DNA of 64,000 bases from an uncultured Chloroflexia bacterium (GTDB lineage: Bacteria > Chloroflexota > Limnocylindria > Limnocylindrales > CSP1-4), in assembly GCA_963748625.1 (NCBI GenBank), contig CAVVJT010000007.1, forward strand, positions 992,001 through 1,056,000. The letters are read 5' to 3'. The number at the start of each line of letters is the position of its first letter. The first letter of the stretch is position 1. Shown here piece after piece: positions 44,872-60,063 of this stretch. The notes under the pieces were generated by a model. It searched no databases and was not told the origin of the DNA. It worked only from the letters and a program-made list of their open reading frames with translations. The position numbers were made by a program, and so were the translations under genes.

Positions 44872-45794
44872 ATGACCATGCGGATCGGGTTCGTCGGGCT
44901 GGGCAGCCTGGGACGCCACCTCGCCACGAGCCTGGTGCAGGCCGGGTTCCAGGTGACCGTCTTCGACGACGAACGAGGCCGCCGTGGCGGACCTTGTCGC
45001 CGTCGGGGCGGCCGGCGCCGCATCCGCGGCCGACGTGGCCCGTGCATCCGACACCGTCATCACCTGCCTGCCTTCGCCGGAGATCGTCACGCAGGTGGTC
45101 GCGGGGCCGTCGGGCATCCTCGAGGGGCTCGCGCCCGGCGGCACCTGGATCGACATGAGCACCAACGACCTGCACGAGCTGCAGCGCCTGGCGGCGGTCG
45201 CGGCGGAGCGGGGCATCGCCACCCTCGAGGCCCCGGTGACCGGCGGCGTCCACCGCGCGGCGGCCGGGATGATCACGCGTGCTCGTCGGCGGTGACGAGG
45301 CGGTCTTCCAGGCGCACCTCCCTGCGTTCGAGGCGATGGGCGGGAAGATCTTCTACATCGGCGCGCTCGGGCAGGCGTCGGTGATCAAGGTCATCACCAA
45401 CATGCTCGCGTTCATCCACCTCGTGGCGGACGGCGAGGCCCTCATGCTGGCCAAGCGCGGCGGCGTCGATCTCGGCCTTGCGTGGGAGGTCATCAAGGCG
45501 AGCTCGGGCAACAGCTTCGTCCACGAGACCGAGGGCCAGCTGATCCTCAACGGCAGCTACAACATCAACTTCACGATGGACCTCGCCCGCAAGGACCTGC
45601 ACCTCGCGCACATGATGGGTCGCGAGTTCGGCGTGCCGCTCGAGCTTGCGAGCGTCACCGAGCAGATCTTCGCCCGCGCCCGGGCGACCTACGGCGGGAG
45701 CGCGCAGTCGCCGTTGGTGGTCAAGATGCTCGAGGAGGCGGTCGGCACCGACCTGCGTGCGCCAGGCTTCCCGGCGGAGCTGGCTCCGGAGTGA
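44872..45794 (+). CDS. NAD(P)-dependent oxidoreductase, 3-hydroxyisobutyrate dehydrogenase family, frameshifted
   Basis: IGFVGLG..G, ITCLPSP, IDMST, APVTGG, KVITN, LARKDL. Confidence 0.85.
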
Positions 45795-47192: not shown

Positions 47193-48449
47193 CTAGCCGA
47201 AGAGCTTCTGGACCTCGCGCAGGGCGGCCGCCAGCGCGTCGATGTCGGCCTTCGTCGTGTAGACCTGGAACGAGGCCCGGGCCGTGGCGGCGAGGTCGAG
47301 GCGCTCGTGGAGCGGCATCGTGCAGTGGTGGCCGGCCCGGATCGCGACGCCGAAGCGGTCGAGCACCTGGGCGACGTCGTGCGGGTGGATGCCGGGCAGG
47401 TTGAACGGGATGACGCCGCCGCGCTGGTCGGCGGGCGGCCCGTAGAGCTCGATCCCGGGGACCTCGCGCGGGAGCATCTCGAGCGCGTACGCGACCAGCT
47501 CCTGCTCGTGGGCGGCCAGCCGGTCCATCCCCAGCTCGAGGAGGTAGTCCGCGGCCGCACCGAGGCCGATCTGGGCGCTGATGTCCGGCGTGCCGGCCTC
47601 GAACTTCCAGGGGATGCTCGTTCCACTCGGACCGGCGCAGGTGGACCTCGCGGATCATGTCGCCGCCGCCCATGAACGGCGGCATGGCCTCGAGCAGCTC
47701 GCGGCGACCCCACAGCGACGCCGGAGCCGGTGGGCGCGAGCGCCTTGTGGCCGCGAGAACACGTAGAAGTCGCAGCCGATGTCGACCACGTCCACCGGCA
47801 GGTGCGGCACCGCCTGGGCGCCGTCGACCAGCACGAGCGCGCCGGCCTCGTGGGCCATGCGCGTCATCTCCTTGACCGGGTTGATCGTGCCCAGCGTGTT
47901 CGACACGTGGGTGAACGCGACCAGCTTGGGCCGGAGGCGCAGCAGCACCTCGTAGACGTCGAGGCGCAGCAGCCCGTCGTCGGTGATCGGGATGAACTCG
48001 AGGTCCCCGTCCTTCTCCTGGGCGAGGATCTGCCAGGGCACCAGGTTCGCGTGGTGCTCCATCTCGGTCAGGATGATCGCGTCGCCCCGCTCGATGTGGC
48101 GGCGCCCCCAGGAGTACGCGACCAGGTTGATCGCCTCGGTCGCGTTCCGGGTCCAGATGATCGTGCTCGGGTCGGGCGCTCCGATCAGGCGCGCGACCTT
48201 CTCCCGGGCACCCTCGTACGCGGCGGTCGCGCGCTCGCTGAGCTGGTAGATCCCGCGGTGGACGTTCGCGTTGTCGTGGCGGTAGTAGGCGTCCATCGCC
48301 TCGATCACCGCCAGGGGCTTCTGCGAGGTCGCGGCGGAGTCGAGGTACACCAGCGGGTGCCCGAAGACCTCCTGGTCCAGGATCGGGAAGTCCGCCTTGA
48401 GCGAGGCCGGATCGAGCGGGGTGCGGGCGCGCTGCAGCTCGGTGGTCAT
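47193..48449 (-). CDS. sufS: Cysteine desulfurase SufS, frameshifted
   Basis: [45 protein letters not shown]. Confidence 0.9.
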
Positions 48450-48489: not shown

Positions 48490-49372
48490 CTACCGGCCGG
48501 CGCCGGCGGCCTCGGGCTCGAGCGGGACCGTGAGCGCCTCGTCGGGGACGCCGAGGTCCGTGCCGTTCTCGCGCAGGATCGGGCCGTAGCCCTCCTCCTC
48601 GAGGCGCAGGGCCAGGTCCTTGCCGCCCGACGTCACGATCCGGCCGGCGGCCAGGACGTGGACGACGTCGGGGGTGATGTAGTTGAGCAGCCGCTGGTAG
48701 TGCGTGATCAGCAGCACGCCCATGTCCGGGTTCAGCTGGGCGTTGACGCCCTCGGCCACGATGCGCAGCGCGTCGATGTCGAGGCCCGAGTCCGTCTCGT
48801 CGAGGATCGCGAACTCCGGCTCCAGCATCGCCATCTGGAGCATCTCGAGGCGCTTCTTCTCGCCGCCGCTGAAGCCGTCGTTGACGTAGCGGGCCGCAAA
48901 GGCGTCGTCCATCTTGAGCAGCGCCATCTTCGCCCGCATCCGCTTGCGGAACTCGAGCATGGAGACGCCGCCCTTGATGGCGTCGGTGGGATCCACGTTG
49001 GGATCCTTGTCGATGCCCTGGAGCTTCGCATTGAGCGCGCTCCGGACGAAGGAGGCGACGGACAGACCCGGGATGGCGGTCGGGTACTGGAAGGCCAGGA
49101 ACAGGCCGAGGCGGGCGCGCTTGTCGGCCGACAGGTCGAGCAGGTCGTAGCCCTTCCAGCGGACCTCGCCGCCCAGGACACGTATGCGCCGGGTGGCCCA
49201 TGAGGGCGTAGGAGAGGGTGGTCTTGCCCGAGCCGTTGGGGCCCATGATCGCGTGGGTCTCACCCTTGCGGATCGTGAGGTTGATCCCCTTGAGGATCTC
49301 GAGGTCGGGCTTGGCCGCCGGGGCGACCCGCAGGTCGCGGATCACCAGCTCCCGGTCGTTGGCGTCGGTCAC
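48490..49372 (-). CDS. sufC: Fe-S cluster assembly ATPase SufC, frameshifted
   Basis: [50 protein letters not shown]. Confidence 0.92.
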
Positions 49373-49920
49373 GAAACGGCTCCTGTGAGCGAGGGTTCAA
49401 TTGACAGGGTTGGGTCCCCCGCCGCGGTACCGGCCGGGGACGTGGCCGGGATCCGCGGGTCGAGGGTGATGTGCGGGACCGGGACGAGGTCCGCGAGGGT
49501 GATCGATTCGAGGGTGCCGGCGATGGCATCGCGGACGCGGACCCAGAGGGTGTGCGTCGTGCACCGCGCCGAGCGGGCGCACTCGGCGTGGCCGGGCTCG
49601 TCCGAGGCGCAGATCATCGGCGCGATCGGGCCTTCGAGGGCGCGCAGCACCTCGCTCATCCGGATGTCGGATGGCGACGAGGTGAGCTCGTAGCCCCCGC
49701 GGGCACCGCGGGTCGAGGTGACGAGGCCTGCGTCCCGGAGGCTCGTGACGAGCTGCTCCAGGTAGGCACGCGGCAGGTCCTCGTCAGCCGCGATCTCGGC
49801 GAGGGAGGCGGGACCGGCCCCGTAGCGTCGTCCGAGCTGGACCATCAGGCGCACGCCGTACTCGCCCTTCGTTGAGAAGGCGACGGCGCCGGTTCCGTGG
49901 TAGCTCGGTCGATTGCTCAG
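49369..49920 (-). CDS. Rrf2-family (IscR-like) transcriptional regulator; probable CTG start
   Basis: [22 protein letters not shown], three Cys (IC..EC..RC); GGAGG 8 nt before CTG at 49920. Confidence 0.88.
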
Positions 49921-50030: not shown

Positions 50031-50086
50031 AAATCCGACCACTTTCGTCGGATATGAGTCTAGACCCGCCCGCGGGAGTGCGTCAA
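50031..50086 (-). promoter_or_regulatory. Sigma70-type promoter plus IscR type-1-like operator for rrf2-sufC-sufS
   Basis: Minus strand TTGACG-18 bp-TAGACT, followed by inverted repeat ATCCGAC-N7-GTCGGAT (50033-50053). Confidence 0.7.
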
Positions 50087-50315
50087 CGAGCACTCGACCG
50101 CGTGCGCGATAGCAGACCGAGACCGGCCGGAGACCCGTCGGCGACCGATGCGCGCGTAGCGTGCGCACGCCATCCGGGCACACCATCCGCGCACGCTGGC
50201 CGCGCACGCCATCCAGGCACGAACTGCACAGGTCACCAAGCGAGACGGTCCGAATGGCCGTGGCCCCATCGGCTGCGGACGCCTAGGATCGCCAGCGCCG
50301 GGGAGGGGTGAGGCG

Positions 50316-53300
50316 ATGGAGTTCCGAGTCCTGGGCCGGATCGAGGCGTCCCAAGACGGAACGCGCTGCCCGGTAGCGGCGGGTCACCAACTGTCCTTGC
50401 TCGCCCTCCTCCTGGTGCACGCGAACCGCACGGTCAGGACGGATCGCATCCTCGAGGATCTCTGGGGCGACGAGCCGCCGTCGAGCGGCGCGAAGACCGT
50501 CGGCTTCCACGTGTCCCGCTTGCGCGACGCGCTCGCGCCTGATCGGGGTGGCGAGGCGGCGGCCCGCGGCAACGGGCGCGAGGTGGCGGCCCGTGGCGAG
50601 GCGGCGGCCGGTGGCAACGGGCGCGGTCCCATCCTCACCGTGGAGGGCGGCTACCTGCTCCGGGTGGATCCGGATTCCGTCGATGCCACGCGCTTCGAGC
50701 GGCTCGCGGCCGAGGGACACGCGCTGCTCGCCAGCGATCCGGCCACCGCGGCGGACCGGCTCCGCGCCGCTCTGGGCGAGTGGGACGGACCCGCCTACGT
50801 GCAGGTCGCGGACTTCCCGTTCGCCCAGACAGAGGCCACGCGCCTCGACGAGCTCCGTCTCCGGGCGCAGGAGGACGCCTTCGACGCTGCCCTGGCGCTC
50901 GGCCGCCAGGATGAGGTGGCAGAAGCGCTCGCAGCGCACGTCGCCACCAACCCGCTGCGCGAGCATCCCCGGGCGACGCTGGTGACCGCCCTCTACCGGA
51001 CCGGGCGCCAGGCCGAGGCCCTGCGCGTCCTCGCCGACGGGCGCACCACGCTCGCGGACGAGCTCGGGGTCGATCCCGGGCCGGAGCTCCGCCGCCTGGA
51101 GACGTGGATCCTCCAGCAGGACGCCCGCCTCGACCACGCGGGAGTCCAGCCCGACCGTGCGATCCGCAATCCGTACAAGGGGCTGCGCCCGTTCGGCGAG
51201 GCGGATGCGCCCGATTTCTTCGGCCGCGAGACCATGGTCGACGCGCTCGTCGAGCGGCTGGGCCAGCTGGCCCGCGGCTCGCGGCTGCTCATGCTCATCG
51301 GGCCCAGTGGCAGCGGCAAATCGAGTGTCGCCCTGGCTGGGCTCCTCTCGGCCGTTCGTCGAGGCGTCGTCCCGGCGCTCGCCGGAGCGTCGGTCGAGGT
51401 CCTGGTGCCAGGGCCGCATCCGCGGCAGGACCTGGCCGCTGCCGTCGAGCGACTGCGCTCGGAGGCAGCGCCGATGGGGTTGCTGGTGGTGGACCAGCTC
51501 GACGAGCTCCCGTCCGTGGCCGGAGACGCAGGGACGACCGCGTTCCTGCACGCGCTCGAGGACGCGCTGGCCGCCGAGGGACCGCCGCTGGTCGCGATCG
51601 TGACGCTGCGGGCCGATCGGATCGACCTCCCGCTCGCGGTCCCGGGCCTCGCGGAGCGGGTACGGACGGGCACGGAGATCGTGGCCCCGCTGTCGCGGCA
51701 CGACCTGGAGCGAGCGGTGAGCCGGCCGGCGGAGCGGGTCGGGCTGATGGTGGAGCCGGGCCTGCCCCATGCGATCGCGGCGGACGTGGGCTCACAGCCC
51801 GCCGCGCTCCCCCTGCTGCAGGTCGCGCTCACCGAGCTGTTCGAGCGGCGCGATGGCGACCGGCTCACGCGTGCCGCCTACGTCGCGTCGGGCGGCGTGG
51901 CGGGCGCGCTCGCAGCCAGGGCCGAGGATGCCTGGGCCGCGCTCGATCGCGGCGACCGCGAGATTGCCCGCCACCTGTTCCTGCACCTCGTCGCCATCAC
52001 CGACACGGGAGAGCCGGCCGTGCGCCGGCGCTCACGGGCCGACCTCGACCCCTTGGCCGACGACGCCGGCTCCCTCGACCGCGTCCTCGAGGTGCTGGCA
52101 CGACGGCGTCTGCTGGGGATCGACGTGGATGCGACCTCGGGCGATGCGGTCGTCTCCATCGCCCATGGCGCGCTCCTCACGAACTGGCCGCGCTGTGCGG
52201 GCTGGATCCGCGAGGCGCGTGACGACCTCGCCATGCGGCGGCGCCTGGCCGACGCGACCGCGGAGTGGGAGGCTGCCGGACGAGATGCCGGCTTCCTCCT
52301 GACCGGCTCCCGCCTCGACCTGTTCGGGGCCTGGGCGTCAACGACGAGCCTGCGCCTCGACCCGCACGAGCGGGCCCTGCTGGACGCGAGCCTGGCCGAC
52401 CGCCGGGCGGCCGAGGAGGCGGAGCGTGCCCGAGCGGAACGCGAGCGTCGCCTCGAGCGGCGCGCGTCGACGCGGATGCGGGCCCTGGCTGCGGTGCTCG
52501 CCGCCGGCATCCTGGCCGCCTCCAGCCTGTCGATCGCCCTGTACCGGCAAGGCACGACGGCGACCGAGGAGGCGCGGGTTGCAGTGGCCCGGGAGCGAGC
52601 GGCGGCAGCGGTCGGCACGCTGGGCTCGGACCCCCGGCTCGCGCTCGTGCTCGCGTGGCATGCGGCCGACGCCACCGCCGATCTCGGCTACGTGACTGCC
52701 GAGGCCTACGACGCACTCCACTGGTCGCTCCAAGCGCTCCACGTGGCCTACCCTCCCGACACCCAGGGCACGGCCGTCCGGATGGGGCCGGACGGACCGA
52801 CGGGCGTCCCGCTGCTCCTGCCCGAGGAGCTGATGGCCATGGCGGCCGCCGAGGGGCTCGAGCCGCTCGGCGCCAGCGAGTGCCGCACCTACCTGCACCA
52901 GGAGTCCTGTCCCCTGCCCCCGGCGCGGTCGACCGGAGGTGGTCCCGTGCTCGGGATCCTGCGTGACGGGTCCACGGCGCCCGCGTCTGCGCTCGGGACC
53001 GGAGGGCTCGAGGGCACGACGGTGGACGTCGTCTCGCAGCTCCCGATGGATGCGACGGACGCGCTGTCGTCGCTGCTAGCGGGGACCGGGATCACCGTGC
53101 GCACGAGCACCGACGATGCCACAGGATCCGTGCTGGCCGACCGCCTCGCGCGCGGTCCCGAGCCGGACATCGCGATCGTGGCCGCGCCTCGGACAATGGC
53201 CGGCCTGGCCGCGGACGGGCTGCTCGTCGACCTCTCCACGCTCGGGGCCGGCACGTCGCCGGCGGTCGCGGGCAGTGCGTACCTCGACGGCCTGATGCGC

Positions 53301-54212
53301 GTCGGCGACGGCGGGTCGTGGCCCGCCGCAGGCGGACGGCTCCGTGGCGTGCCGCTCGCGCTCACTGACGAGAGCCTGCTGTGGACGGCCAGCAGCGAGG
53401 AGCCGGGGGTGATGTCGCCTCGCACCTGGGGGGCGGTGACGGCCAACGCGCGAGACGCGGCCTCGGCTGGACGCGCCGGCTGGTGCCTCGGGCTCGCGGG
53501 GGATTCGGCCGGCGCCAGCGACATTGTCGGCGTGTTCGAGGACGGCCTGCTTGACCTCGGGGGCGTCGCCACCTACGACGCGTGGGCGAGCGATCCGGAG
53601 TCGATCGCGATGGAGCGAGGCGGCCCGGCCTTCGCGAGGGTTCTCGAGGTCGCCGACCCCTCGCTCGTGCTCGGAGGGCTCGAGAGTGCGGCGCTCACGC
53701 CACCCGAATGGGCTGCATGGCCGATGTTCGCCTCGCCATCCCGCTGCCTCTACCACCCGGGAGGCGGGCAGGACCGCCTCGAATGGCCCGCCGGCAGCAA
53801 CACCGGGCTCACGGCGGTCCCGGTGCCCGGCACCGCCCCGGACACGGCCGGGCCGGTCCGCGGTCGGGCGTACATCGTCGTGGTCCTGCACGACCGGCCG
53901 GAGGTCCGCTCGCTGCTCCGCCACCTGCTGGATCCAGCGGCAGGCGCGGACCTCGACAGCGTGCTGGCCGCGGCGGGCCTCTGGCGGCCCGGAGGCGCGG
54001 ACGGGCCGGCGCCCGAACGAGACCTGCTGGCGGCCGCCGTGCGAAACGACACATTCCGGGTACGTCTCCAGGACATCGCACCGGCGCCGGTCAGCGAGGC
54101 GCTCGCACAGGGCCTGGAGACCTACCTGGGATCGCCCGTCGAGACGTACACCCTGTTCGCCGGCGGGATCCGCCAGGCATGGGCCCGCGTCGCCCTCGAT
54201 GGCGGTGAGTGA
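50316..54212 (+). CDS. SARP/BTAD regulator - nSTAND1 NTPase - TM - extracellular solute-binding domain fusion
   Basis: FRVLG..wHTH, VDATRFE..PLRE..ELGVDPGPEL (BTAD), NPYKGLRPF, GPSGSGKSS, LVVDQLDE, TM helix, sugar-SBP-like tail (PDIAIV, GLLVDL, WCLGL). Confidence 0.8.
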   Translation: MEFRVLGRIEASQDGTRCPVAAGHQLSLLALLLVHANRTVRTDRILEDLWGDEPPSSGAKTVGFHVSRLRDALAPDRGGEAAARGNGREVAARGEAAAGGNGRGPILTVEGGYLLRVDPDSVDATRFERLAAEGHALLASDPATAADRLRAALGEWDGPAYVQVADFPFAQTEATRLDELRLRAQEDAFDAALALGRQDEVAEALAAHVATNPLREHPRATLVTALYRTGRQAEALRVLADGRTTLADELGVDPGPELRRLETWILQQDARLDHAGVQPDRAIRNPYKGLRPFGEADAPDFFGRETMVDALVERLGQLARGSRLLMLIGPSGSGKSSVALAGLLSAVRRGVVPALAGASVEVLVPGPHPRQDLAAAVERLRSEAAPMGLLVVDQLDELPSVAGDAGTTAFLHALEDALAAEGPPLVAIVTLRADRIDLPLAVPGLAERVRTGTEIVAPLSRHDLERAVSRPAERVGLMVEPGLPHAIAADVGSQPAALPLLQVALTELFERRDGDRLTRAAYVASGGVAGALAARAEDAWAALDRGDREIARHLFLHLVAITDTGEPAVRRRSRADLDPLADDAGSLDRVLEVLARRRLLGIDVDATSGDAVVSIAHGALLTNWPRCAGWIREARDDLAMRRRLADATAEWEAAGRDAGFLLTGSRLDLFGAWASTTSLRLDPHERALLDASLADRRAAEEAERARAERERRLERRASTRMRALAAVLAAGILAASSLSIALYRQGTTATEEARVAVARERAAAAVGTLGSDPRLALVLAWHAADATADLGYVTAEAYDALHWSLQALHVAYPPDTQGTAVRMGPDGPTGVPLLLPEELMAMAAAEGLEPLGASECRTYLHQESCPLPPARSTGGGPVLGILRDGSTAPASALGTGGLEGTTVDVVSQLPMDATDALSSLLAGTGITVRTSTDDATGSVLADRLARGPEPDIAIVAAPRTMAGLAADGLLVDLSTLGAGTSPAVAGSAYLDGLMRVGDGGSWPAAGGRLRGVPLALTDESLLWTASSEEPGVMSPRTWGAVTANARDAASAGRAGWCLGLAGDSAGASDIVGVFEDGLLDLGGVATYDAWASDPESIAMERGGPAFARVLEVADPSLVLGGLESAALTPPEWAAWPMFASPSRCLYHPGGGQDRLEWPAGSNTGLTAVPVPGTAPDTAGPVRGRAYIVVVLHDRPEVRSLLRHLLDPAAGADLDSVLAAAGLWRPGGADGPAPERDLLAAAVRNDTFRVRLQDIAPAPVSEALAQGLETYLGSPVETYTLFAGGIRQAWARVALDGGE

Positions 54213-54309
54213 CTTGCCGGTGGCTAGCCGGGCCCTAACCGCCACCGCCGAGAGTCCGTCCCACCAGCGGGGCACACGGCCCCGCGCAAGGGACGGAAGG
54301 CAGGGTCAC

Positions 54310-54882
54310 ATGAAGCGCATCACCATCCTGGTCGCGGCCATGGCGCTCGCGACCGCCGCCTGCGCAGGTGGCTCGGCGTCCGACAGCACGACGGCAGCTC
54401 CGGTCGCGACGGTTGGGGCCCCCGCCGAGACGCCTGCCGACGCTCCGGCGGCCACCGTCGCGCCGACCGCGACCCAGCAGCCCGAGGCGGCTGCCACGAT
54501 GACCTGGGACGGGACCACCTGCACCTACGCCGGACCGACCGTCGTGCCGCGCGGCGCGCGCCTCACCGTGACGCTGACCAACACGCCCGAGGCCGAGGCA
54601 GGCGGGCGGGATGGCGCCGGGTTCCTCCTCGCCAAGGTCGACGACGGCATCACGCAGGCGGACTTCGATGCCTGGGTGAAGGACCATCCGAAGGGGTCCG
54701 ACATCCCGCCCTGGCTGGACGGGGCCGGAACCCAGATCGTGTATCCGGAACAGGTAAAGGACGGCCTTCCGCTCGTCGCCCGACAGCTGAACGCCAACCG
54801 CTTCATGACCCTGTGCGGCGAGACCCCGAAGGACGGCCAGGCGATGCACTTCGGCGCGATCATCGAGACCACGGGCGGCTGA
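54310..54882 (+). CDS. Hypothetical lipoprotein
   Basis: MKRITILVAAMALATAAC lipobox, Ala/Thr/Pro linker, beta-rich domain. Confidence 0.7.
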   Translation: MKRITILVAAMALATAACAGGSASDSTTAAPVATVGAPAETPADAPAATVAPTATQQPEAAATMTWDGTTCTYAGPTVVPRGARLTVTLTNTPEAEAGGRDGAGFLLAKVDDGITQADFDAWVKDHPKGSDIPPWLDGAGTQIVYPEQVKDGLPLVARQLNANRFMTLCGETPKDGQAMHFGAIIETTGG

Positions 54883-56076: not shown

Positions 56077-59000
56077 ATGGCCCTCGCGCACGATCGGAGC
56101 GATCGCCGACTTCGGCGCTCCAGACCCGCGATCCGTGCGCTGCCCGCGCCGCTCGAGGAAGCGCGCGTCGCAGCGCTGCGTCGCCTTGTCGCCGAGGCCT
56201 CCGCGAACCTTGAGCTCGAGGAAGTGCTCCACGACGTCCTCGACTCGGCGCAGGAGCTGTTCGGCGCCGACGTGGCCGGGCTCTGGCTGCTCGAGCAGGA
56301 TGACCATCCGCTCCGCCTGGCGGCGGCTCGGAACCTGGATCCGGAGATCATCGAGGCGGTTGCCGCGGTGCGGCGCGACCAGCCGGTGGTGGGGCTGCTC
56401 GCGATCGGCGAGCAGCGGCCAGTGGTCCTCGACGATCCCGAGCATGCCGCGCAGTTCGGAGACATCTACGCGCACCAGGGGTTCCGCACGGTCGCCTTCG
56501 TGCCGCTCGTGTTCCGCGACGAAGCGGTCGGCCTGCTGGCGCTCTATCACCGGGTCGCCTACGACTGGAGCCCCGACGAGCTGGAGCTCTGCTCGGCGTT
56601 CGGGGCGCAGATGGCGATCGCGGTCTCCAACGCCCGCCTCCACGGCTCGGTCCGTGAGGGTGCCGCCCGGCTGCGCGCGATCCAGGAGCTGAGCCTGCGG
56701 CTCAACCGGATCCAGGACACGGAGGGCATCGGGGCGGCGATCGTGGCCGAGGCCGACCGGCTCATCGCCCACGACACGATCCGGGTGTACCGCGTCGACC
56801 ACGTCACCCAGACCTGCGAGCCCATCGCGTTCCAGGGCGAGTTCATGGACATTGGGACCCCGTCCGAGGAGGATCTCCGGCTGCGGATCGGCGAAGGCCT
56901 CACCGGGTGGGTGGCGCTCCACAACCAGACGCTCCGGATCGAGGACGCCAACAACGACGCACGGGGACGCCAGGTGGGCGGCGCCCGCACCGCGGAGTCG
57001 ATGCTCCTGGTCCCGATGTCCTACGAGTCGCGCGTGCTGGGGATCATCGTCGTCTCGAAGACAGGCCGTGCGCAGTACGGCGAGGACGACCAGCGCACGC
57101 TCGAGATCTTCGCGGGCTACGCGGCCCAGGCCCTCGCCAACGCCGAGGCGTTCGGACGGGTGAGCCGCCAGCAGGAGCAGCTGCACCACCGGCTCGAGAG
57201 CCAGCGCCGGCTCCTGGAGGTCAGCGAGCGCCTGCTCGCGACGCTGGATCCTGCGGGCATCCTGGAGCTGATCGCGGACTCGCTGCGCTCCGTGGTGGCC
57301 TACGACTCGCTCACCATCTACCGCGTGGACCGCGCGGCGTGGGTGCGCCGGGCCGTGGTGGCGCGCGACCGTTTCGCCGAGGAGATCCTCTCCCACGAGA
57401 GCCCGCTCGACGTGGGCATCACGGGATGGGTGATCCGCAACGGGGAGGCCGTGCTGGCGAACGACGCCCACCTGGACCCCCGTGCCGAGACGATCCCGGG
57501 CACGCCCGAGGAGCCGGAGTCCATGATCGTGTGCCCGCTCCTCATCGCGGGCGACGTGGTGGGCACGCTCAACATGGCCCGCATGGGTGGTCCTGAGGCC
57601 CACTTCAGCCGCGACGAGTTCGAACTGGTCCAGCTCTTCGCCGCCCAGGCCTCGATCGCGCTGCGCAATGCCGAAACCCACGGCGAGGTGGTGACTCGGG
57701 CCGAGCACGACGCCCTGACCGGGGTGCGCAACCACGGGGCCTTCCAGCGCGAGGTTGGCGCGCTCATCGGGCTGGGCGCTCCGTTCGCGCTGCTGATGCT
57801 GGACCTGGACGACTTCAAGGCCTACAACGACGCGCACGGCCATCCGGCAGGTGACGCCCTGCTGGGCCGGATCGCGGCGGTCATGGCCGACATGGTCCGC
57901 TCCCAGGACCGTGTCTACCGGTATGGAGGCGATGAGTTCGCGATCCTGCTCCCGGACGCGGGGATCGGGGCCGCGCGCGACGTCGCCGAGCGCATCCGGG
58001 CCGCGGTCGCCCGGATCACCGCGGCCATCGGCCCGGTCGTCACGGTGAGCGTGGGCGTGGCCTGCTACCCGGACCAGGCCACCGACAAGGACGGCCTCGT
58101 GGGCGCCGCCGACCGTGCGCTCTACCTCGCCAAGCCACCGGATCGGACACGCCTCCCATCCGTGGATCCCACGCGCGACCTGTACCTTGCGGCCGTGGAC
58201 CAGACCACGCTCAAGCTGCTCGAGCGCCTCGAGCCGCGGGAGCTCCTCACCGAGATCGTCGAGCGTGCGGCCAGCCTGGTCGGCGTGGAGCACGGGTTCC
58301 TCTACCTGCTCGAAGGGCCGGAGCAGACCGGAGCGCCCGGACCGGACGACCTCGCGCTGGTGGCCCGGGTGGGTATCGGCGAGTTCGCGGACTACGAGGG
58401 CTACCGGCTACCACGGGGCACCGGGATCGGCTGGACCGTCGTGAACACGGGTGCACCGGTGGTGGTGGACGACTATGCCGACTACCCCGGGCGTGCACCG
58501 GACCTGTCCGGCGAGCGGTTCGGGGCCGTGTGCGCGGTGCCGCTCACCTCGGGTGACGAGGTGCTCGGCTGCATCGGCCTCGCCTCCGGTGACGCCTCGC
58601 GCCTGTTCTCCGAGCGCGAGGTAGAGGCGCTCGCGCGCTTCAGCCAGCTGGCGTCCGTGGCGCTCGACAACGCGCGGCTGTTCGAACGGGCGCAGACCGA
58701 GGTCCGCTATCGCGCCCACATCGCCCTCCACGACCAGGTGACCGGACTTCCCAACCGGACGCTCCTGCTCAACCGCCTCGCGGAGGAGCTCGACGCCGCC
58801 GGGCGCGACGATGAGCCGCGGCGCGCGGCGGTCAGCAGCCGGATCGCGCTCGTCCTGCTCGACCTGGACCGGTTCAAGGTGGTCAACGAGAGCCTGGGTC
58901 ACGCGGCCGGCGACCTGCTCCTCACCGAGACAGGCAGGCGCCTGGTTGCGGCGGCACGCTCCACCGACACCGTCGCGCGGCTGGGCTCAGACGAGTTCGG

Positions 59001-60063
59001 GATCCTGCTGGGCACCGTCCGCAGCGTGCGTGAGGCGGAGCGCGTCGCGGCGCGCATCCAGGCTGCCCTGGGCGAGCCGTTCGATCTCGACGGCGAGGAG
59101 GTCACCATCGGTGCCAGCATCGGCATCGCGGTGGGCCTGGCGGAGGATGCCCACCCGGCCGACCTGCTCAAGGAGGCGGAGATCGCGTTGCACCGGGCCA
59201 AGGCGGACCCGGTCCGCAAGGTCGTCGTCTTCGATCCGGAGATGCGGACCCAGACCCTGGAGCGCGCCGGCATGGAACACGACCTGCGCCGTGCCATCGA
59301 GCGGTCCGAGCTGTGCCTCCACTACCAGCCACTGGTGGACCTCACGACCGGATCCGTCGTCGGCGTCGAGGCCCTCCTGCGCTGGAACCACCCGACACGA
59401 GGGCTGGTTGCCCCCCTCTCGTTCATCCCGCTCGCCGAGGAGACGGGACTCATCCTGCCCATCGGGCGCTGGGTCCTGGAGTCCGCGTGCCACCAGCTGC
59501 GGGAGTGGCAGCGTCGCTTCCCGGCCGCCGCGCGCCTGCAGGTGAGCGTGAACCTCTCAGCCCGCCAGTTCGCCGAGGCCGACCTCATCGGCAACGTGGC
59601 CGCGATCCTGGACCATGCCGGCCTGCGGCCCGAGGACCTCGAGCTCGAGATCACCGAGAGCGTGGTGATGGACCAGACCGAGGCGTCGATCGAGCGGCTG
59701 CGCGGGCTGCGTGCACTGGGCGTCCACCTGGTGCTCGACGACTTCGGAACGGGCTACTCGTCGCTCGCCTACCTGCGGCGCCTGCCGCTCGACACGATCA
59801 AGGTGGACCGCTCGTTCGTGATGGGCCTGGGCTCGGACCCGGCCGACATGCCCATCGTCCAGGCGGTGATCTCGCTCGCGCACGGTCTGGGCATCGACGT
59901 GGTGGCGGAGGGGATCGAGACGCCCAGCCAGCTCGCGACGCTCCAGCGCCTTGCCTGCGACCGTGGCCAGGGCTACTGGTTCTCACGGCCGCTGCCGGCC
60001 CCGATGCTGGAGGCGCTCCTCGCGGAGGCCGACGGCGCGCAGCTGGTGCTCGGAGGGGGCTGA
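56077..60063 (+). CDS. Multi-GAF diguanylate cyclase/phosphodiesterase (GAF-GAF-GAF-GGDEF-GAF-GGDEF*-EAL)
   Basis: HDALTG..DLDDFK..YRYGGDEF; HDQVTGLPNR..ARLGSDEF; VEALLRW, LEITES, DDFGTGYSSL, VVAEGIE, GQGY. Confidence 0.92.
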   Translation: MALAHDRSDRRLRRSRPAIRALPAPLEEARVAALRRLVAEASANLELEEVLHDVLDSAQELFGADVAGLWLLEQDDHPLRLAAARNLDPEIIEAVAAVRRDQPVVGLLAIGEQRPVVLDDPEHAAQFGDIYAHQGFRTVAFVPLVFRDEAVGLLALYHRVAYDWSPDELELCSAFGAQMAIAVSNARLHGSVREGAARLRAIQELSLRLNRIQDTEGIGAAIVAEADRLIAHDTIRVYRVDHVTQTCEPIAFQGEFMDIGTPSEEDLRLRIGEGLTGWVALHNQTLRIEDANNDARGRQVGGARTAESMLLVPMSYESRVLGIIVVSKTGRAQYGEDDQRTLEIFAGYAAQALANAEAFGRVSRQQEQLHHRLESQRRLLEVSERLLATLDPAGILELIADSLRSVVAYDSLTIYRVDRAAWVRRAVVARDRFAEEILSHESPLDVGITGWVIRNGEAVLANDAHLDPRAETIPGTPEEPESMIVCPLLIAGDVVGTLNMARMGGPEAHFSRDEFELVQLFAAQASIALRNAETHGEVVTRAEHDALTGVRNHGAFQREVGALIGLGAPFALLMLDLDDFKAYNDAHGHPAGDALLGRIAAVMADMVRSQDRVYRYGGDEFAILLPDAGIGAARDVAERIRAAVARITAAIGPVVTVSVGVACYPDQATDKDGLVGAADRALYLAKPPDRTRLPSVDPTRDLYLAAVDQTTLKLLERLEPRELLTEIVERAASLVGVEHGFLYLLEGPEQTGAPGPDDLALVARVGIGEFADYEGYRLPRGTGIGWTVVNTGAPVVVDDYADYPGRAPDLSGERFGAVCAVPLTSGDEVLGCIGLASGDASRLFSEREVEALARFSQLASVALDNARLFERAQTEVRYRAHIALHDQVTGLPNRTLLLNRLAEELDAAGRDDEPRRAAVSSRIALVLLDLDRFKVVNESLGHAAGDLLLTETGRRLVAAARSTDTVARLGSDEFGILLGTVRSVREAERVAARIQAALGEPFDLDGEEVTIGASIGIAVGLAEDAHPADLLKEAEIALHRAKADPVRKVVVFDPEMRTQTLERAGMEHDLRRAIERSELCLHYQPLVDLTTGSVVGVEALLRWNHPTRGLVAPLSFIPLAEETGLILPIGRWVLESACHQLREWQRRFPAAARLQVSVNLSARQFAEADLIGNVAAILDHAGLRPEDLELEITESVVMDQTEASIERLRGLRALGVHLVLDDFGTGYSSLAYLRRLPLDTIKVDRSFVMGLGSDPADMPIVQAVISLAHGLGIDVVAEGIETPSQLATLQRLACDRGQGYWFSRPLPAPMLEALLAEADGAQLVLGGG

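Follow-up and report, generated by a model that had tools for sequence, protein, structure and literature searches.

A predicted membrane-tethered SARP–nSTAND1 regulator with a solute-binding-protein domain and a linked lipoprotein gene

What might a transcriptional regulator sense when its DNA-binding head is joined, in one polypeptide, to a STAND NTPase, a membrane helix and a domain with the fold of a solute-binding protein (SBP)? A gene of this kind lies in the window, the whole 64,000-nt stretch of DNA that was analysed; all features described here are on its + strand and are numbered by window position. On balance we think it probable that this gene and the lipoprotein gene behind it form a two-gene outside-in module, in which a membrane-tethered SARP/STAND regulator acts together with a lipoprotein that is both its co-receptor and its target.

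The receptor gene (P0001, 50316..54212) encodes 1298 aa in the order SARP head, nSTAND1, TM segment, cap and SBP, as read from the open frame, Pfam and the family alignment. An earlier, sequence-only reading had described an intact 1298-aa frame with wHTH, BTAD and nSTAND1 domains, which the frame, the Pfam matches and the nucleotide-binding motifs confirm; the span it gave, 50316..54882, begins with the receptor frame, but its end belongs to the lipoprotein gene. The start, MEFRVLG, agrees with the N-termini of homologues in family alignment A1. An OmpR-type winged helix (Trans_reg_C; aa 25–76, 50388..50543; 34.5 bits, profile positions 10–60 of 77) is followed, ahead of the wing, by a Gly/Ala/Arg-rich insert of ~28 aa (aa ~77–106, 50544–50633) that only the receptor and P0004 have in common in A1. 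The BTAD domain (PF03704; aa 122–266, 50679..51113) covers its entire profile (1–146 of 146, E 1.6e-41), and PDB sequence matches include AfsR (8hvr, E 4.7e-35) and EmbR (2fez, E 2.6e-29). The nSTAND1 NTPase (PF20703; aa 286–658, 51171..52289) reaches 311.8 bits where the cut-off is 27.1 (E 1.3e-92, profile positions 1–378 of 379). Its Walker A motif GPSGSGKSS (aa 329–337, with K335) and Walker B motif VVDQLDE (aa 391–397, with D393) occupy near-invariant columns of A1, and R432 is conserved. This is the sole full nSTAND1 gene found in its own 4.6-Mb genome. Neighbouring genes carry frameshift splits, and contamination of the genome bin is 7.7%.

Just downstream, where a lipoprotein gene had been noticed, 54310..54882 encodes a 190-aa protein with a signal peptide, a lipobox (Cys18), an Ala/Pro/Thr linker and a 135-aa beta-sandwich domain. 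Of the 48 same-genus genomes compared, nine have a strong lipoprotein match (E <= 1e-17), and the identical nine have a strong receptor-ectodomain match (E <= 1e-23), these genomes being kin and not independent; the lipoprotein gene is immediately 3′ of the receptor gene and on the same strand in 9/9. No strong lipoprotein match was found in the 39 same-genus genomes without the receptor, and neither gene turned up in the 32 sister-family genomes searched. A lipoprotein homologue is likewise directly 3′ of the receptor in L009, and in cyclase-type relatives (L006, P0081) the SBP continues at its C-terminus into a fused lipoprotein domain. These patterns support a functionally linked two-gene module. 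The sequence-only reading had suggested that the lipoprotein might be a co-receptor or a target. The former idea gains support from the fusion, from the strict co-occurrence and from a weak complex prediction, in which receptor and lipoprotein reached an ipSAE of 0.57 (runs 0.57, 0.49, 0.64) against 0.00 for the best of three controls; 116/157 solved complexes and 2/215 mismatched pairs reach the pass mark, and passing scores of <=0.60 comprise 18/157 solved complexes and both of the mismatches. The runs share >=95% of contacts, with partner pLDDT >=89. Based on the three lines together, the lipoprotein is probably a co-receptor that binds the receptor.

The idea of the lipoprotein gene as a target is strengthened by a candidate SARP-type promoter in the spacer between the two genes (54213..54255). 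Three heptamers at 11-nt spacing, CTTGCCG (54213–19), CTAGCCG (54224–30) and CTAACCG (54235–41), are followed after 8 bp by the -10-like hexamer GAGAGT (54250–55; type xAxxxT), the same heptamer, 8-bp and hexamer layout that the Introduction of PMC10936776 states as the SARP promoter rule. The double heptamer pattern has a single site in the window, and 100 shuffles put the expected number at 0. For the triple pattern, the whole genome yields this one site and the reversed control likewise one match, so no regulon emerges. Spacers of L009 and L089 carry a CTWRCCG-type box as in the window, again in three copies with 8 bp and xAxxxT, and eight same-genus orthologue spacers have a like layout with a different box; by box group, the recognition helix begins with AKT (the window and L009) or with AGS or SGS (the eight orthologues). 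Across nine receptor–lipoprotein spacers, whose repeat boxes were identified post hoc, heptamer self-matches (>=6/7) total 27 at offset 11 versus 0–8 at offsets 7–17, and by the same rule just 5/8 orthologue spacers have two or more offset-11 matches. The periodicity extends to 39 upstream regions of BTAD-nSTAND1 genes, with 140 matches at offset 11, 17–54 at others and a shuffle mean of 24 (sd 7.8, max 45). Neither a terminator-like nor a sigma-70-like site was found in the receptor–lipoprotein spacer, so co-transcription of the lipoprotein with the receptor is possible. Through the predicted promoter, the lipoprotein gene is probably a target of the receptor's SARP head.

The fold of the lipoprotein raises the question of which partner does the sensing. 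Its AF2 model (pLDDT 93.9) is a beta-sandwich with an invariant Cys pair, and the best structural neighbours are cupredoxin-type, all with Z < 8, the range that the tool terms a common arrangement: azurin (3ay2, Z 6.8, rmsd 4.2, 111 aligned), the CuA domain of N2O reductase (2iwf, Z 6.8, rmsd 3.0, 96 aligned), EfeO (7wgu, Z 6.5, rmsd 2.9, 88 aligned) and FtrB (8vuk, Z 6.0, rmsd 3.2, 89 aligned). Foldseek adds auracyanin (1qhq, E 3.2e-3), and H71, D12, Y18, Y90 and D120 are near-invariant alongside the Cys pair. These neighbours and residues, in the product of the one predicted target gene, would fit an envelope, metal or redox sensor in which the lipoprotein senses or works, with metal as in EfeO, FtrB and CupA or by thiol/redox chemistry, while the SBP mainly docks; alternatively, the system may merely induce the lipoprotein. 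We consider this unlikely, given the modest Z scores, the absence of a classical Cys-His-Met copper loop conserved across the lipoprotein family, and an SBP that retains both lobes and conserved Trp/Glu/Asp, as would a ligand-binding protein.

The history of the sensor end bears on a second alternative. An extracytoplasmic cap domain (aa 768–865, 52617..52910), defined by alignment to WD40 relatives and by AF2, consists of N-cap helices, a relic blade and a C-cap helix, and is alpha/beta in the model (pLDDT 88–97). The N-cap, DPRLALVLA.., begins at aa 772, and the C-cap, ECRTYLHQESC (aa 855–865), carries the invariant C856/C865 of A1. Of 19 WD40-type relatives 17 were examined, P0053 and P0054 being omitted as near-copies of P0049. 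In 16/17 (the exception is P0066), aa 700–~810 align N-terminal of the propeller and aa 810–866 with the final ~56 residues, and a propeller of 300–590 aa lies between both caps; the caps that the sequence-only reading had taken to flank WD40 repeats are real. It had seen them close together with no repeats between, and a full propeller is indeed missing, but the alignment pairs residues 810–834 (52743–52817) with the relatives' last WD40 blade (VAFSPDG..DG.VRVW), so that they form a relic blade. The distance from TM segment to C-cap is 129–155 aa in SBP forms versus 453–803 aa in WD40 forms, and the SBP is placed after the C-cap, not between the caps. These alignments support replacement of the WD40 propeller by the SBP, with one relic blade remaining. 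On the NTPase tree the receptor belongs to a clade with 100% support, whose 46 rows are 45 SBP forms plus one truncated row, and SBP and WD40 forms are interleaved with at least nine state changes (FastTree only, unrooted), in line with the sensor-domain swapping that had been suggested. The nSTAND1-TM-propeller design is already catalogued, and the SBP form adds to that kind.

Such repeated sensor exchange, like the patchy presence of the module in the genus (10/49 genomes), is typical of accessory or arms-race genes and might point to a surface-facing immune or conflict sensor, which, as has been proposed for nSTAND1 'counter-invader' systems, would detect a phage or competitor molecule at the envelope, and would trigger defence through the SARP head. 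A passage of PMC8195603 names the nSTAND1 clade in a conflict-system setting; moreover, the nSTAND1-TM-SBP chassis bears a TIR head in P0104, and relatives of the SBP are paired with TIR in P0114 and with caspase-TPR in P0175. Nevertheless, heads of SBP forms are mostly signalling types (72 rows: BTAD 48, BTAD+kinase 11, cyclase 5, BTAD+kinase+cyclase 2, kinase only 2, TIR 1, none found 3), pocket-type SBP residues are invariant across the family and not varying, the sole predicted target is the receptor's own partner gene, and the neighbourhood is of housekeeping type (suf/Rrf2, flavodoxin, GGDEF-EAL, metabolic enzymes), with no defence gene seen. We regard an immune role as improbable. Of the earlier interpretation, the domain order, N-in/C-out topology, propeller replacement and lipoprotein link are supported by computation. 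'NLR-like' describes an analogy of architecture; the receptor's output would be transcriptional, and its neighbourhood holds no hint of defence.

Topology was assessed from a continuous predicted helix (aa 701–767, 52416..52616; AF2 and hydropathy) made up of an Arg-rich cytoplasmic stalk, the TM segment and an outer stalk; it comprises residues 2–68 of the AF2 construct aa 700–1298 at pLDDT 85–96. The TM segment (aa 721–744, nt 52476–52547), which matches a helix previously placed near 52480–52545, is the sole hydrophobic segment (Kyte-Doolittle 19-aa mean 2.21). Known sugar-sensing STAND regulators (MalT, GutR) are soluble, and topology here comes from hydropathy and inference; a wholly cytoplasmic MalT/AfsR-like regulator, with the helix buried or in a coiled coil and the SBP binding a cytoplasmic metabolite, is nonetheless very hard to reconcile with the strength of that segment (up to 3.1 in relatives), its Arg-rich N-flank and its counterparts in 132/132 SBP- and WD40-type family rows (hydropathy >=1.84, median 2.58). 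Exactly four Cys past the TM segment are invariant in A1 (C856/C865 and C1057/C1144) and none ahead of it, confining both pairs to the C-terminal part. With its signal peptide and lipobox, the partner is predicted to be a lipoprotein, and fusion of its domain to the SBP in L006 and P0081 places the SBP on the side where lipoproteins lie. Taken together, these computed features support a single-pass, N-in/C-out receptor.

The SBP fold itself (aa ~880–1298, 52953..54209) is confidently modelled by AF2 (aa 700–1298, pLDDT 89.1, pTM 0.87), so that domain parsing, which had been proposed as a check, and Foldseek both agree with the sugar-binding-type domain predicted to follow the caps. The best Foldseek match is the glucose-binding ppGBP (5xpj, E 8.8e-16, TM 0.75 on target), and PDB neighbours of the SBP include AcbH, TtGBP, RafE and chitin-oligosaccharide binders besides ppGBP (E 1e-15 to 1e-10). 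At the sequence level, SBP_bac_1 matches aa 923–1077 with 24.2 bits, under the Pfam cut-off of 26, and NCBIfam names no SBP family for the receptor; relatives of the domain exceed the SBP_bac_1/SBP_bac_8 cut-offs. W1023, W1056, C1057, E1075 and C1144 are invariant across the family. The ligand class is a guess, since the structural neighbours are merely 12–19% identical and one group of them binds dinucleotides; our guess is a sugar or glycan fragment. A transport-coupled tether, in which the SBP still feeds an ABC importer whose genes lie elsewhere while transporter occupancy is merely reported by the cytoplasmic part, draws on a fold that belongs to transport SBPs and on weak matches (27–29% identity) to ordinary 440–600-aa SBP frames in related genomes, but seems far-fetched with no ABC permease gene within about 10 kb of the module, no SBP paralogue in the own genome at E <= 1e-3, an SBP anchored N-terminally to stalk and cap, and closest relatives that are nearly all sensor fusions (24/43 scanned with nSTAND1, 6/43 with Ser/Thr kinase). 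Together with the lack of a lipoprotein paralogue in the own genome, the missing SBP paralogue and permease support a dedicated sensor.

The two-gene outside-in module that we favour builds on computed domain families, fold, family-wide TM segment, cap–propeller relation, fusion, co-occurrence and repeat layout. The SBP would close on a small ligand, for which a sugar or glycan fragment is the likeliest candidate, and the lipoprotein on the same side would help to hold the ligand or help the ectodomains to associate. The change would travel along the stalk-TM helix and favour nucleotide-dependent assembly of the nSTAND1 modules; assembled SARP heads could then sit side by side on the three 11-nt-phased heptamers, 8 bp before the weak -10, and recruit RNA polymerase. 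In this way the receptor would set the level of its own co-receptor, a feedback loop to which further targets may be added. The parts of the model that we infer are the class of ligand, the gating across the membrane, the binding to DNA and whether the feedback is positive or negative. In known STANDs the sensor contacts the NTPase, and no tested precedent is known for gating across a single TM helix.

Repeats were also found 5′ of the receptor gene. A weaker candidate site, GAGACC/GAGACC/GCGACC at 11-nt spacing (50119..50146), lies 170–199 nt 5′ of the receptor start; it is not kept in the eight same-genus orthologues, whose upstream regions lack 11-nt periodicity (2 matches versus 3–31 at other offsets). 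Four copies of a 13-bp tandem repeat, GCGCACGCCATCC, occupy 50163..50214, and 13-nt periodicity, in other sequences, is also present upstream of orthologues L098, L099 and L100. Closer to the gene, the -10-like TAGGAT (50284..50289) lies in a block conserved 5′ of orthologous receptor genes, the L009 block being compared as well, and TAGGCT, TAGCCT or TAGCAT is found at the equivalent place in the eight orthologues.

The receptor gene (50316..54212, + strand) is open for 1298 codons and begins with MEFRVLG, the conserved start of its homologues in the receptor family alignment. An OmpR-type winged helix (Trans_reg_C, aa 25-76; Pfam, 34.5 bits against a cut-off of 26.2) is followed directly by a BTAD domain (aa 122-266; E 1.6e-41, 142.5 bits against a cut-off of 22.1), the N-terminal order of SARP regulators, and comparison of this head with PDB sequences returned AfsR (8hvr, E 4.7e-35) and EmbR (2fez, E 2.6e-29). 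By these matches the receptor carries a true SARP head. The AfsR equivalog family (NCBIfam NF053617) was ruled out, since the receptor scores 156 bits where the curated cut-off is 1430, and matches over aa 2-339 only. The NTPase at aa 286-658 belongs to nSTAND1 (PF20703; 311.8 bits against a cut-off of 27.1, E 1.3e-92, profile positions 1-378 of 379), and Walker A K335, Walker B D393 and R432 all fall in near-invariant columns. Within its own genome (4.6 Mb, 10 contigs) the receptor gene is the sole full nSTAND1 gene, the four other matches being P-loop pieces of 20-29 bits; paralogues were therefore surveyed among relatives from other genomes. Bin contamination is 7.7% and neighbouring genes are split by frameshifts, yet the receptor frame is intact and conserved. 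Between the recognition helix and the wing lies a Gly/Ala/Arg-rich insert with an internal near-duplication (nt 50544-50633, aa ~77-106). In the family alignment only P0004, the closest relative, shares it; the insert that same-genus orthologues have at this position is shorter and Gly/Pro/Asn-rich.

Past the NTPase, the sequence contains one hydrophobic stretch (aa 721-744), preceded by an Arg-rich stretch and followed by an N-cap and a C-cap. A hydrophobic segment is present in all 132 family rows, drawn from proteins and loci (minimum 1.84, median 2.58). In an AlphaFold2 model of aa 700-1298 (pLDDT 89.1, pTM 0.87, 42-row family alignment), aa 701-767 form one continuous helix comprising stalk, TM segment and outer stalk, followed by a small alpha/beta domain (aa ~773-860) and a two-lobed domain from aa ~880. 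Searching with aa 640-880 returned 64 protein clusters: 43 with the SBP layout (~1300 aa), 19 with WD40-type propellers and 2 truncated. We compared the receptor with 17 of the 19 WD40 relatives, leaving out P0053 and P0054 as near-copies of P0049. In 16 of them receptor aa 700-~810 aligns just past the TM helix and aa 810-866 with the last ~56 residues, and an ECxxYLHxxxC motif stands 11-13 residues from the C-terminal end; the lone exception, P0066, has a variant motif. The C-cap motif was found in 59 of 72 SBP rows and 34 of 60 WD40 rows. It follows the TM helix by 129-155 aa in SBP forms (131 aa in the receptor) and by 453-803 aa in WD40 forms, and the median distance from it to the protein end is 446 aa and 13 aa, respectively. 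The sequence-only reading had taken these motifs for caps flanking a WD40 propeller, which proved right: in relatives the propeller sits between them, and in the receptor it is gone. Its statement that no repeats remain there holds for the propeller but not for aa 810-834, which are modelled as a confident beta-hairpin. Because this segment aligns with the last WD40 blade of the relatives (VAFSPDG..DG.VRVW.L), we regard it as a relic blade, the only one left between the caps.

The assignment of the C-terminal half, proposed earlier as an ABC sugar-binding-like domain, was settled by structure prediction. Pfam SBP_bac_1 matches aa 923-1077 with 24.2 bits, below the cut-off of 26, whereas relatives at 29-79% identity do exceed the SBP_bac_1 or SBP_bac_8 cut-offs. 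A Foldseek search of the modelled domain against the PDB gave at least 500 matches at E <= 0.001, and among the matches listed almost all are sugar-binding SBPs. The best was the glucose-binding protein ppGBP (5xpj, E 8.8e-16, TM 0.75 on the target); other neighbours were AcbH, Thermus GBP, RafE, chitin- and xylo-oligosaccharide binders and one dinucleotide binder, at identities of 12-19%. The return of sugar-binding proteins in this search confirms, for the model, a two-lobed SBP fold. W1023, W1056, E1075 and D951 are conserved in the domain. Its own genome contains no second copy of either the SBP domain or the domain of the lipoprotein encoded downstream. By inference the SBP domain must lie outside the cell, since in the cyclase-headed locus L006 and in protein cluster P0081 it is covalently linked to a domain that elsewhere is exported and lipid-anchored. 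The cysteine distribution agrees with this location: in the family alignment four cysteines are invariant (C856/C865 and C1057/C1144), all past the TM helix, and none before the helix is invariant. A ligand, gating across the membrane and DNA binding by the receptor are what we infer.

A survey for interchangeable C-terminal sensors, suggested by the sequence-only reading, was run on these relatives. With only the SBP domain as query, a full HMMER scan recovered 307 representatives at E <= 0.001, 81 of these at E <= 1e-10, and 43 of the long ones among the matches listed were scanned with Pfam. Twenty-four of the 43 are nSTAND1 fusions with wHTH-BTAD, wHTH-BTAD-kinase, nucleotide cyclase (P0081) or TIR (P0104) heads, some of them truncated at the N-terminus. 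Six are Ser/Thr kinase-SBP proteins (P0124, P0137, P0140, P0148, P0156, P0195), and TIR, caspase-TPR, MscS-cNMP and BTAD alone were seen in one case each. We then placed the sensor types on an unrooted FastTree phylogeny of the NTPase region, with 143 rows (72 SBP, 60 WD40, 11 other) after 13 truncated rows had been dropped. The receptor falls in a 100%-supported clade of 46 rows, comprising 45 SBP forms and one truncated row, inside which the cyclase-headed forms are nested. At least nine changes between SBP and WD40 states are needed on this tree, and the starred branches alone force at least six. Based on these state changes and the nested cyclase heads, the phylogeny indicates that sensors and heads are swapped repeatedly on a fixed NTPase-stalk-cap chassis, which bears out the sensor swapping proposed earlier. 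The tree being unrooted and made by a fast method, the direction of change, apparently propeller lost and SBP gained, is read from the relic blade. Every related locus found belongs to a genome bin of uncultured Actinomycetota or Chloroflexota.

Directly 3′ of the receptor gene, the lipoprotein gene (54310..54882, + strand) encodes 190 aa: a signal peptide with lipobox Cys18 is followed by an Ala/Pro/Thr linker and then by a domain of 135 aa that has an invariant Cys pair. The N-terminus reads MKR, a hydrophobic stretch and A-A-C18, which we take to be a lipobox by the usual pattern rule, and the equivalent (A/V/S/G)-C is kept in homologues with a preserved N-terminus. The family is small (13 clusters) and has no Pfam match. 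AlphaFold2 models the domain as a beta-sandwich (pLDDT 93.9) with weak, cupredoxin-type fold neighbours: Z values go no higher than 6.8, the score of azurin 3ay2 (rmsd 4.2, 111 aligned), EfeO 7wgu has Z 6.5 (rmsd 2.9, 88 aligned), and Foldseek gave auracyanin 1qhq at E 3.2e-3, with no PDB match at E <= 0.001. The Cys/His/Met residues of a copper loop are unconserved across the lipoprotein homologues in their alignment.

Three lines of evidence, namely fusion, co-occurrence and complex prediction, tie this protein to the receptor. In L006, whose 1447-codon frame encodes a cyclase-nSTAND1-TM-cap-SBP protein, and likewise in P0081, a lipoprotein-type domain is fused to the SBP C-terminus. Of 48 same-genus genomes, nine have strong lipoprotein matches (E <= 1e-17) and the same nine have strong receptor-ectodomain matches (E <= 1e-23), with the lipoprotein gene directly downstream on the same strand in 9/9; these genomes are kin and therefore not independent. 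A further 25 same-genus genomes gave weak profile matches only, mostly to the signal-peptide and linker part; in G002, G018, G022 and G027 weak matches reach the domain part, within longer frames. Neither gene was found in 32 genomes of a sister family. Complex prediction for the ectodomain (aa 760-1298) and the lipoprotein domain gave an ipSAE of 0.57 (runs 0.57, 0.49 and 0.64), with contacts agreeing to at least 95% and partner pLDDT of at least 89, against 0.00 for the best of three controls. The pass mark is reached by 116/157 solved complexes and 2/215 mismatched pairs, and at ipSAE <=0.60 by just 18/157 solved complexes together with both passing mismatches, so that the prediction lends weak support to association. 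Taken together, the lipoprotein is part of the receptor system. In distant actinobacterial SBP loci (L017, L019-L021, L033, L048-L050, L068) tblastn found no lipoprotein homologue, and a crude lipobox scan of their downstream frames gave nothing convincing.

The two-gene module occurs in 10 of the 49 genomes of the genus. The receptor is closer to L009, from a Chloroflexia-labelled MAG (54% identity, same promoter box), than to eight of its nine same-genus orthologues (among G009-G044), whose ectodomains are 37-39% identical and which carry a different box; the ninth, in G031 (41%), shares the box found in the window. This pattern suggests either lateral transfer of the cassette or two old lineages. 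In one of the genomes a 1387-codon frame (G019:C15:111069-112391) encodes a second, more distant receptor copy (33% identity) with no separate lipoprotein match; since its length equals that of the cyclase-headed P0030, it may carry the lipoprotein domain in fused form.

The 97-nt spacer between the two genes starts with three heptamers, CTTGCCG, CTAGCCG and CTAACCG, at 54213, 54224 and 54235, 11 nt apart, and a -10-like GAGAGT (xAxxxT) lies at 54250-54255, exactly 8 bp past the third. [quoted passage not shown] The spacer contains no terminator-like and no sigma-70-like site. In the window the double pattern has this one site, and 100 shuffles give an expectation of 0. The CTWRCCG triple is unique in the genome, where a search for a wider regulon found no second site; the reversed control pattern also has one match. 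At the same place, L009 has CTAGCCG / CTAGCCC / CTAGCCG, 8 bp, CAGGAT, and L089 (genome G031) has CTTGCCG / ATAGCCG / CAAACCG, 8 bp, GACGAT. In the eight other same-genus orthologues the phase is kept but the box is another, CTCATCG / CTCGACG / CTGAGCC / CTCATGC, 8 bp, CATCGT. Across nine spacers, heptamer self-matches number 27 at offset 11 against 0-8 at offsets 7-17, and at least two offset-11 matches are seen in the window and, by the same criterion, in five of the eight orthologues. The start of the recognition helix also follows the box groups: the eight orthologues have AGS or SGS there, whereas it reads AKT in L009 and the window. The boxes were found post hoc, and on this pattern the lipoprotein gene is a predicted target of the receptor through a candidate SARP-type promoter.

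Upstream of the receptor gene, three perfect GAGACC copies with 11-nt spacing (50119-50146), unique in the genome, form a weak candidate site. Autoregulation through this array was rejected: it is absent from the eight same-genus orthologues, whose upstream regions have no 11-nt periodicity (2 matches, against 3-31 at other offsets), and its box is unlike the one before the lipoprotein gene. What those orthologues do conserve upstream is a block in which a -10-like TAGGMT precedes the start by ~30 nt. In the window, a 13-bp tandem repeat is present in four copies (50163-50214), placed between this -10-like block and the GAGACC array; L098, L099 and L100 also have 13-nt periodicity upstream, with other sequences. 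In 39 upstream regions of BTAD-nSTAND1 genes taken together, offset 11 accounts for 140 matches; the other offsets give 17-54, and shuffled sequences average 24 (sd 7.8, max 45). Many of these genes, mostly WD40 forms, have CTTCAAGCG-type boxes, which in L020, L021, L025, L059, L072 and L073 lie 11 nt apart ~105 nt before the start; some loci carry inverted GCTTGAAG copies ~25 nt farther upstream. Such arrays resemble an autoregulatory SARP site common to the family.

STAND/NLR switches are understood as cytoplasmic proteins in which the sensor domain is in contact with the NTPase. MalT and GutR follow this scheme, inducer- and nucleotide-dependent oligomerization positioning their DNA-binding domains on repeated sites; they differ from the receptor in being soluble, with a cytoplasmic sensor touching the NTPase, in belonging to another STAND clade and in placing a LuxR-type DNA-binding domain at the C-terminus. 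The topology is instead analogous to that of ToxR and CadC, which bind DNA from the membrane: their OmpR-type winged helix is N-terminal and cytoplasmic, a single TM helix follows, and the sensor is C-terminal and periplasmic; some work with a periplasmic or membrane partner (ToxS). Such regulators lack a BTAD and an NTPase module and have small, unrelated sensor domains, whereas the receptor has a BTAD and a 373-aa NTPase between winged helix and TM helix; homology between them is presumably confined to the winged helix. SBPs serve as ligand receptors in signalling rather than transport in LuxP-LuxQ, TorT-TorS and ChvE-VirA, and the SBP-fused Ser/Thr kinases, close relatives of the receptor's SBP domain, join it to a kinase through a TM helix. 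Unlike these two-component sensors and kinases, the receptor has as its output a STAND switch and a DNA-binding head in one chain, and no kinase partner for its gene is evident.

The closest systems also include the nSTAND1-TM-WD40 proteins and the large SARPs. The former share the NTPase clade, the Arg-rich stalk with a single hydrophobic helix, the N-cap and C-cap including ECxxYLHxxxC, and the head set of the SBP family (SARP, kinase, cyclase, TIR). They differ in having a 300-590-aa propeller in place of one relic blade and in ending at the C-cap, past which the receptor adds the SBP fold; a dedicated lipoprotein partner likewise distinguishes the receptor. The nSTAND1 clade was named by Kaur, Iyer, Burroughs and Aravind (eLife 2021, PMC8195603). 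AfsR and other large SARPs of Streptomyces (8hvr, 8jke, 8k60; PMC10936776) and EmbR (2fez) have the same wHTH-BTAD head; in the large SARPs a STAND-type NTPase follows, as in the receptor, and 11-nt direct repeats end 8 bp before the -10 element, the layout of our candidate promoter. The receptor NTPase is nSTAND1 rather than the AfsR NOD, the NCBIfam AfsR match covering the head only; unlike AfsR, the receptor has no TPR sensor and is predicted to span the membrane with an extracytoplasmic sensor. The sequence-only reading had asked whether such an architecture was already functionally characterized; in the literature searched we found no BTAD/SARP-nSTAND1-TM-SBP protein, no lipoprotein partner and no experiment on the layout. 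Among sensors, a 2026 survey of prokaryotic STANDs in Nature names TPR, WD40 and FGE-sulfatase types; the words 'solute', 'periplasmic' and 'BTAD' are absent from its main text. With the chassis already catalogued (nSTAND1, PF20703), the SBP form with a fused or paired lipoprotein appears to be what is new.

The architecture noticed from sequence was thus confirmed, and its interpretation is supported in part. Our joint reading, held tentatively and at somewhat below even confidence, is that membrane-spanning nSTAND1 proteins would be general NLR-like receptors of the outside, in which swappable WD40 or SBP ectodomains on a fixed cap and stalk gate cytoplasmic STAND oligomerization via a single TM helix. 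The lipoprotein of the SBP form would be both co-receptor and direct transcriptional target. No earlier member would have combined a sensor of small-molecule type with a defined output promoter, and this form would thus be the first to allow reconstitution and measurement of STAND gating across the membrane. A large bacterial nSTAND1 family is predicted to place its sensor across the membrane from its NTPase. The SBP variant would be its most tractable entry point, because ligands of an SBP-fold sensor can be screened by thermal shift, because the outside location is pinned by the lipoprotein fusion in relatives, and because one short predicted target promoter offers a direct read-out; SBP sensor, fused or paired lipoprotein and single predicted promoter together make an unusually testable system. 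If the model holds, it would represent a new route of signal across the membrane, from ligand to STAND assembly to transcription in a single chain, and would show exchange of sensor cassettes on a fixed chassis.

Neither an ABC permease nor a defence gene is found near the module. On its downstream side are a flavodoxin-like gene (- strand) and, two genes from the module, a GAFx4-GGDEF-EAL protein (56077-60063, + strand, 1328 aa; four GAF, two GGDEF and one EAL matches), with ordinary metabolic genes farther out. A search of sequencing runs returned no RNA run with a match and eight DNA runs with small shares (0.05-0.10). Upstream, on the - strand, are an Rrf2 regulator, a SufC-like ATPase and a split SufS. 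Split or partial genes are found at 47193-48449 (-), 44957-45794 (+) and 48490-49263 (-): a SufS-like Aminotran_5 is spread over two adjoining frames, one dehydrogenase has its NAD_binding_2 and NAD_binding_11 in two overlapping frames, and the SufC-like ABC ATPase matches part of its profile only. These are either assembly indel errors or pseudogenes; similar frameshifts occur in the receptor or lipoprotein genes of L007, L009 and G016. In the divergent region, the only sigma-70-like site is TTGACG-18-TAGACT (50057-50086, - strand), with a perfect palindrome, ATCCGAC-N7-GTCGGAT (50033-50053), just downstream of it; the two are probably the promoter and operator of the Rrf2 gene (49369-49854).
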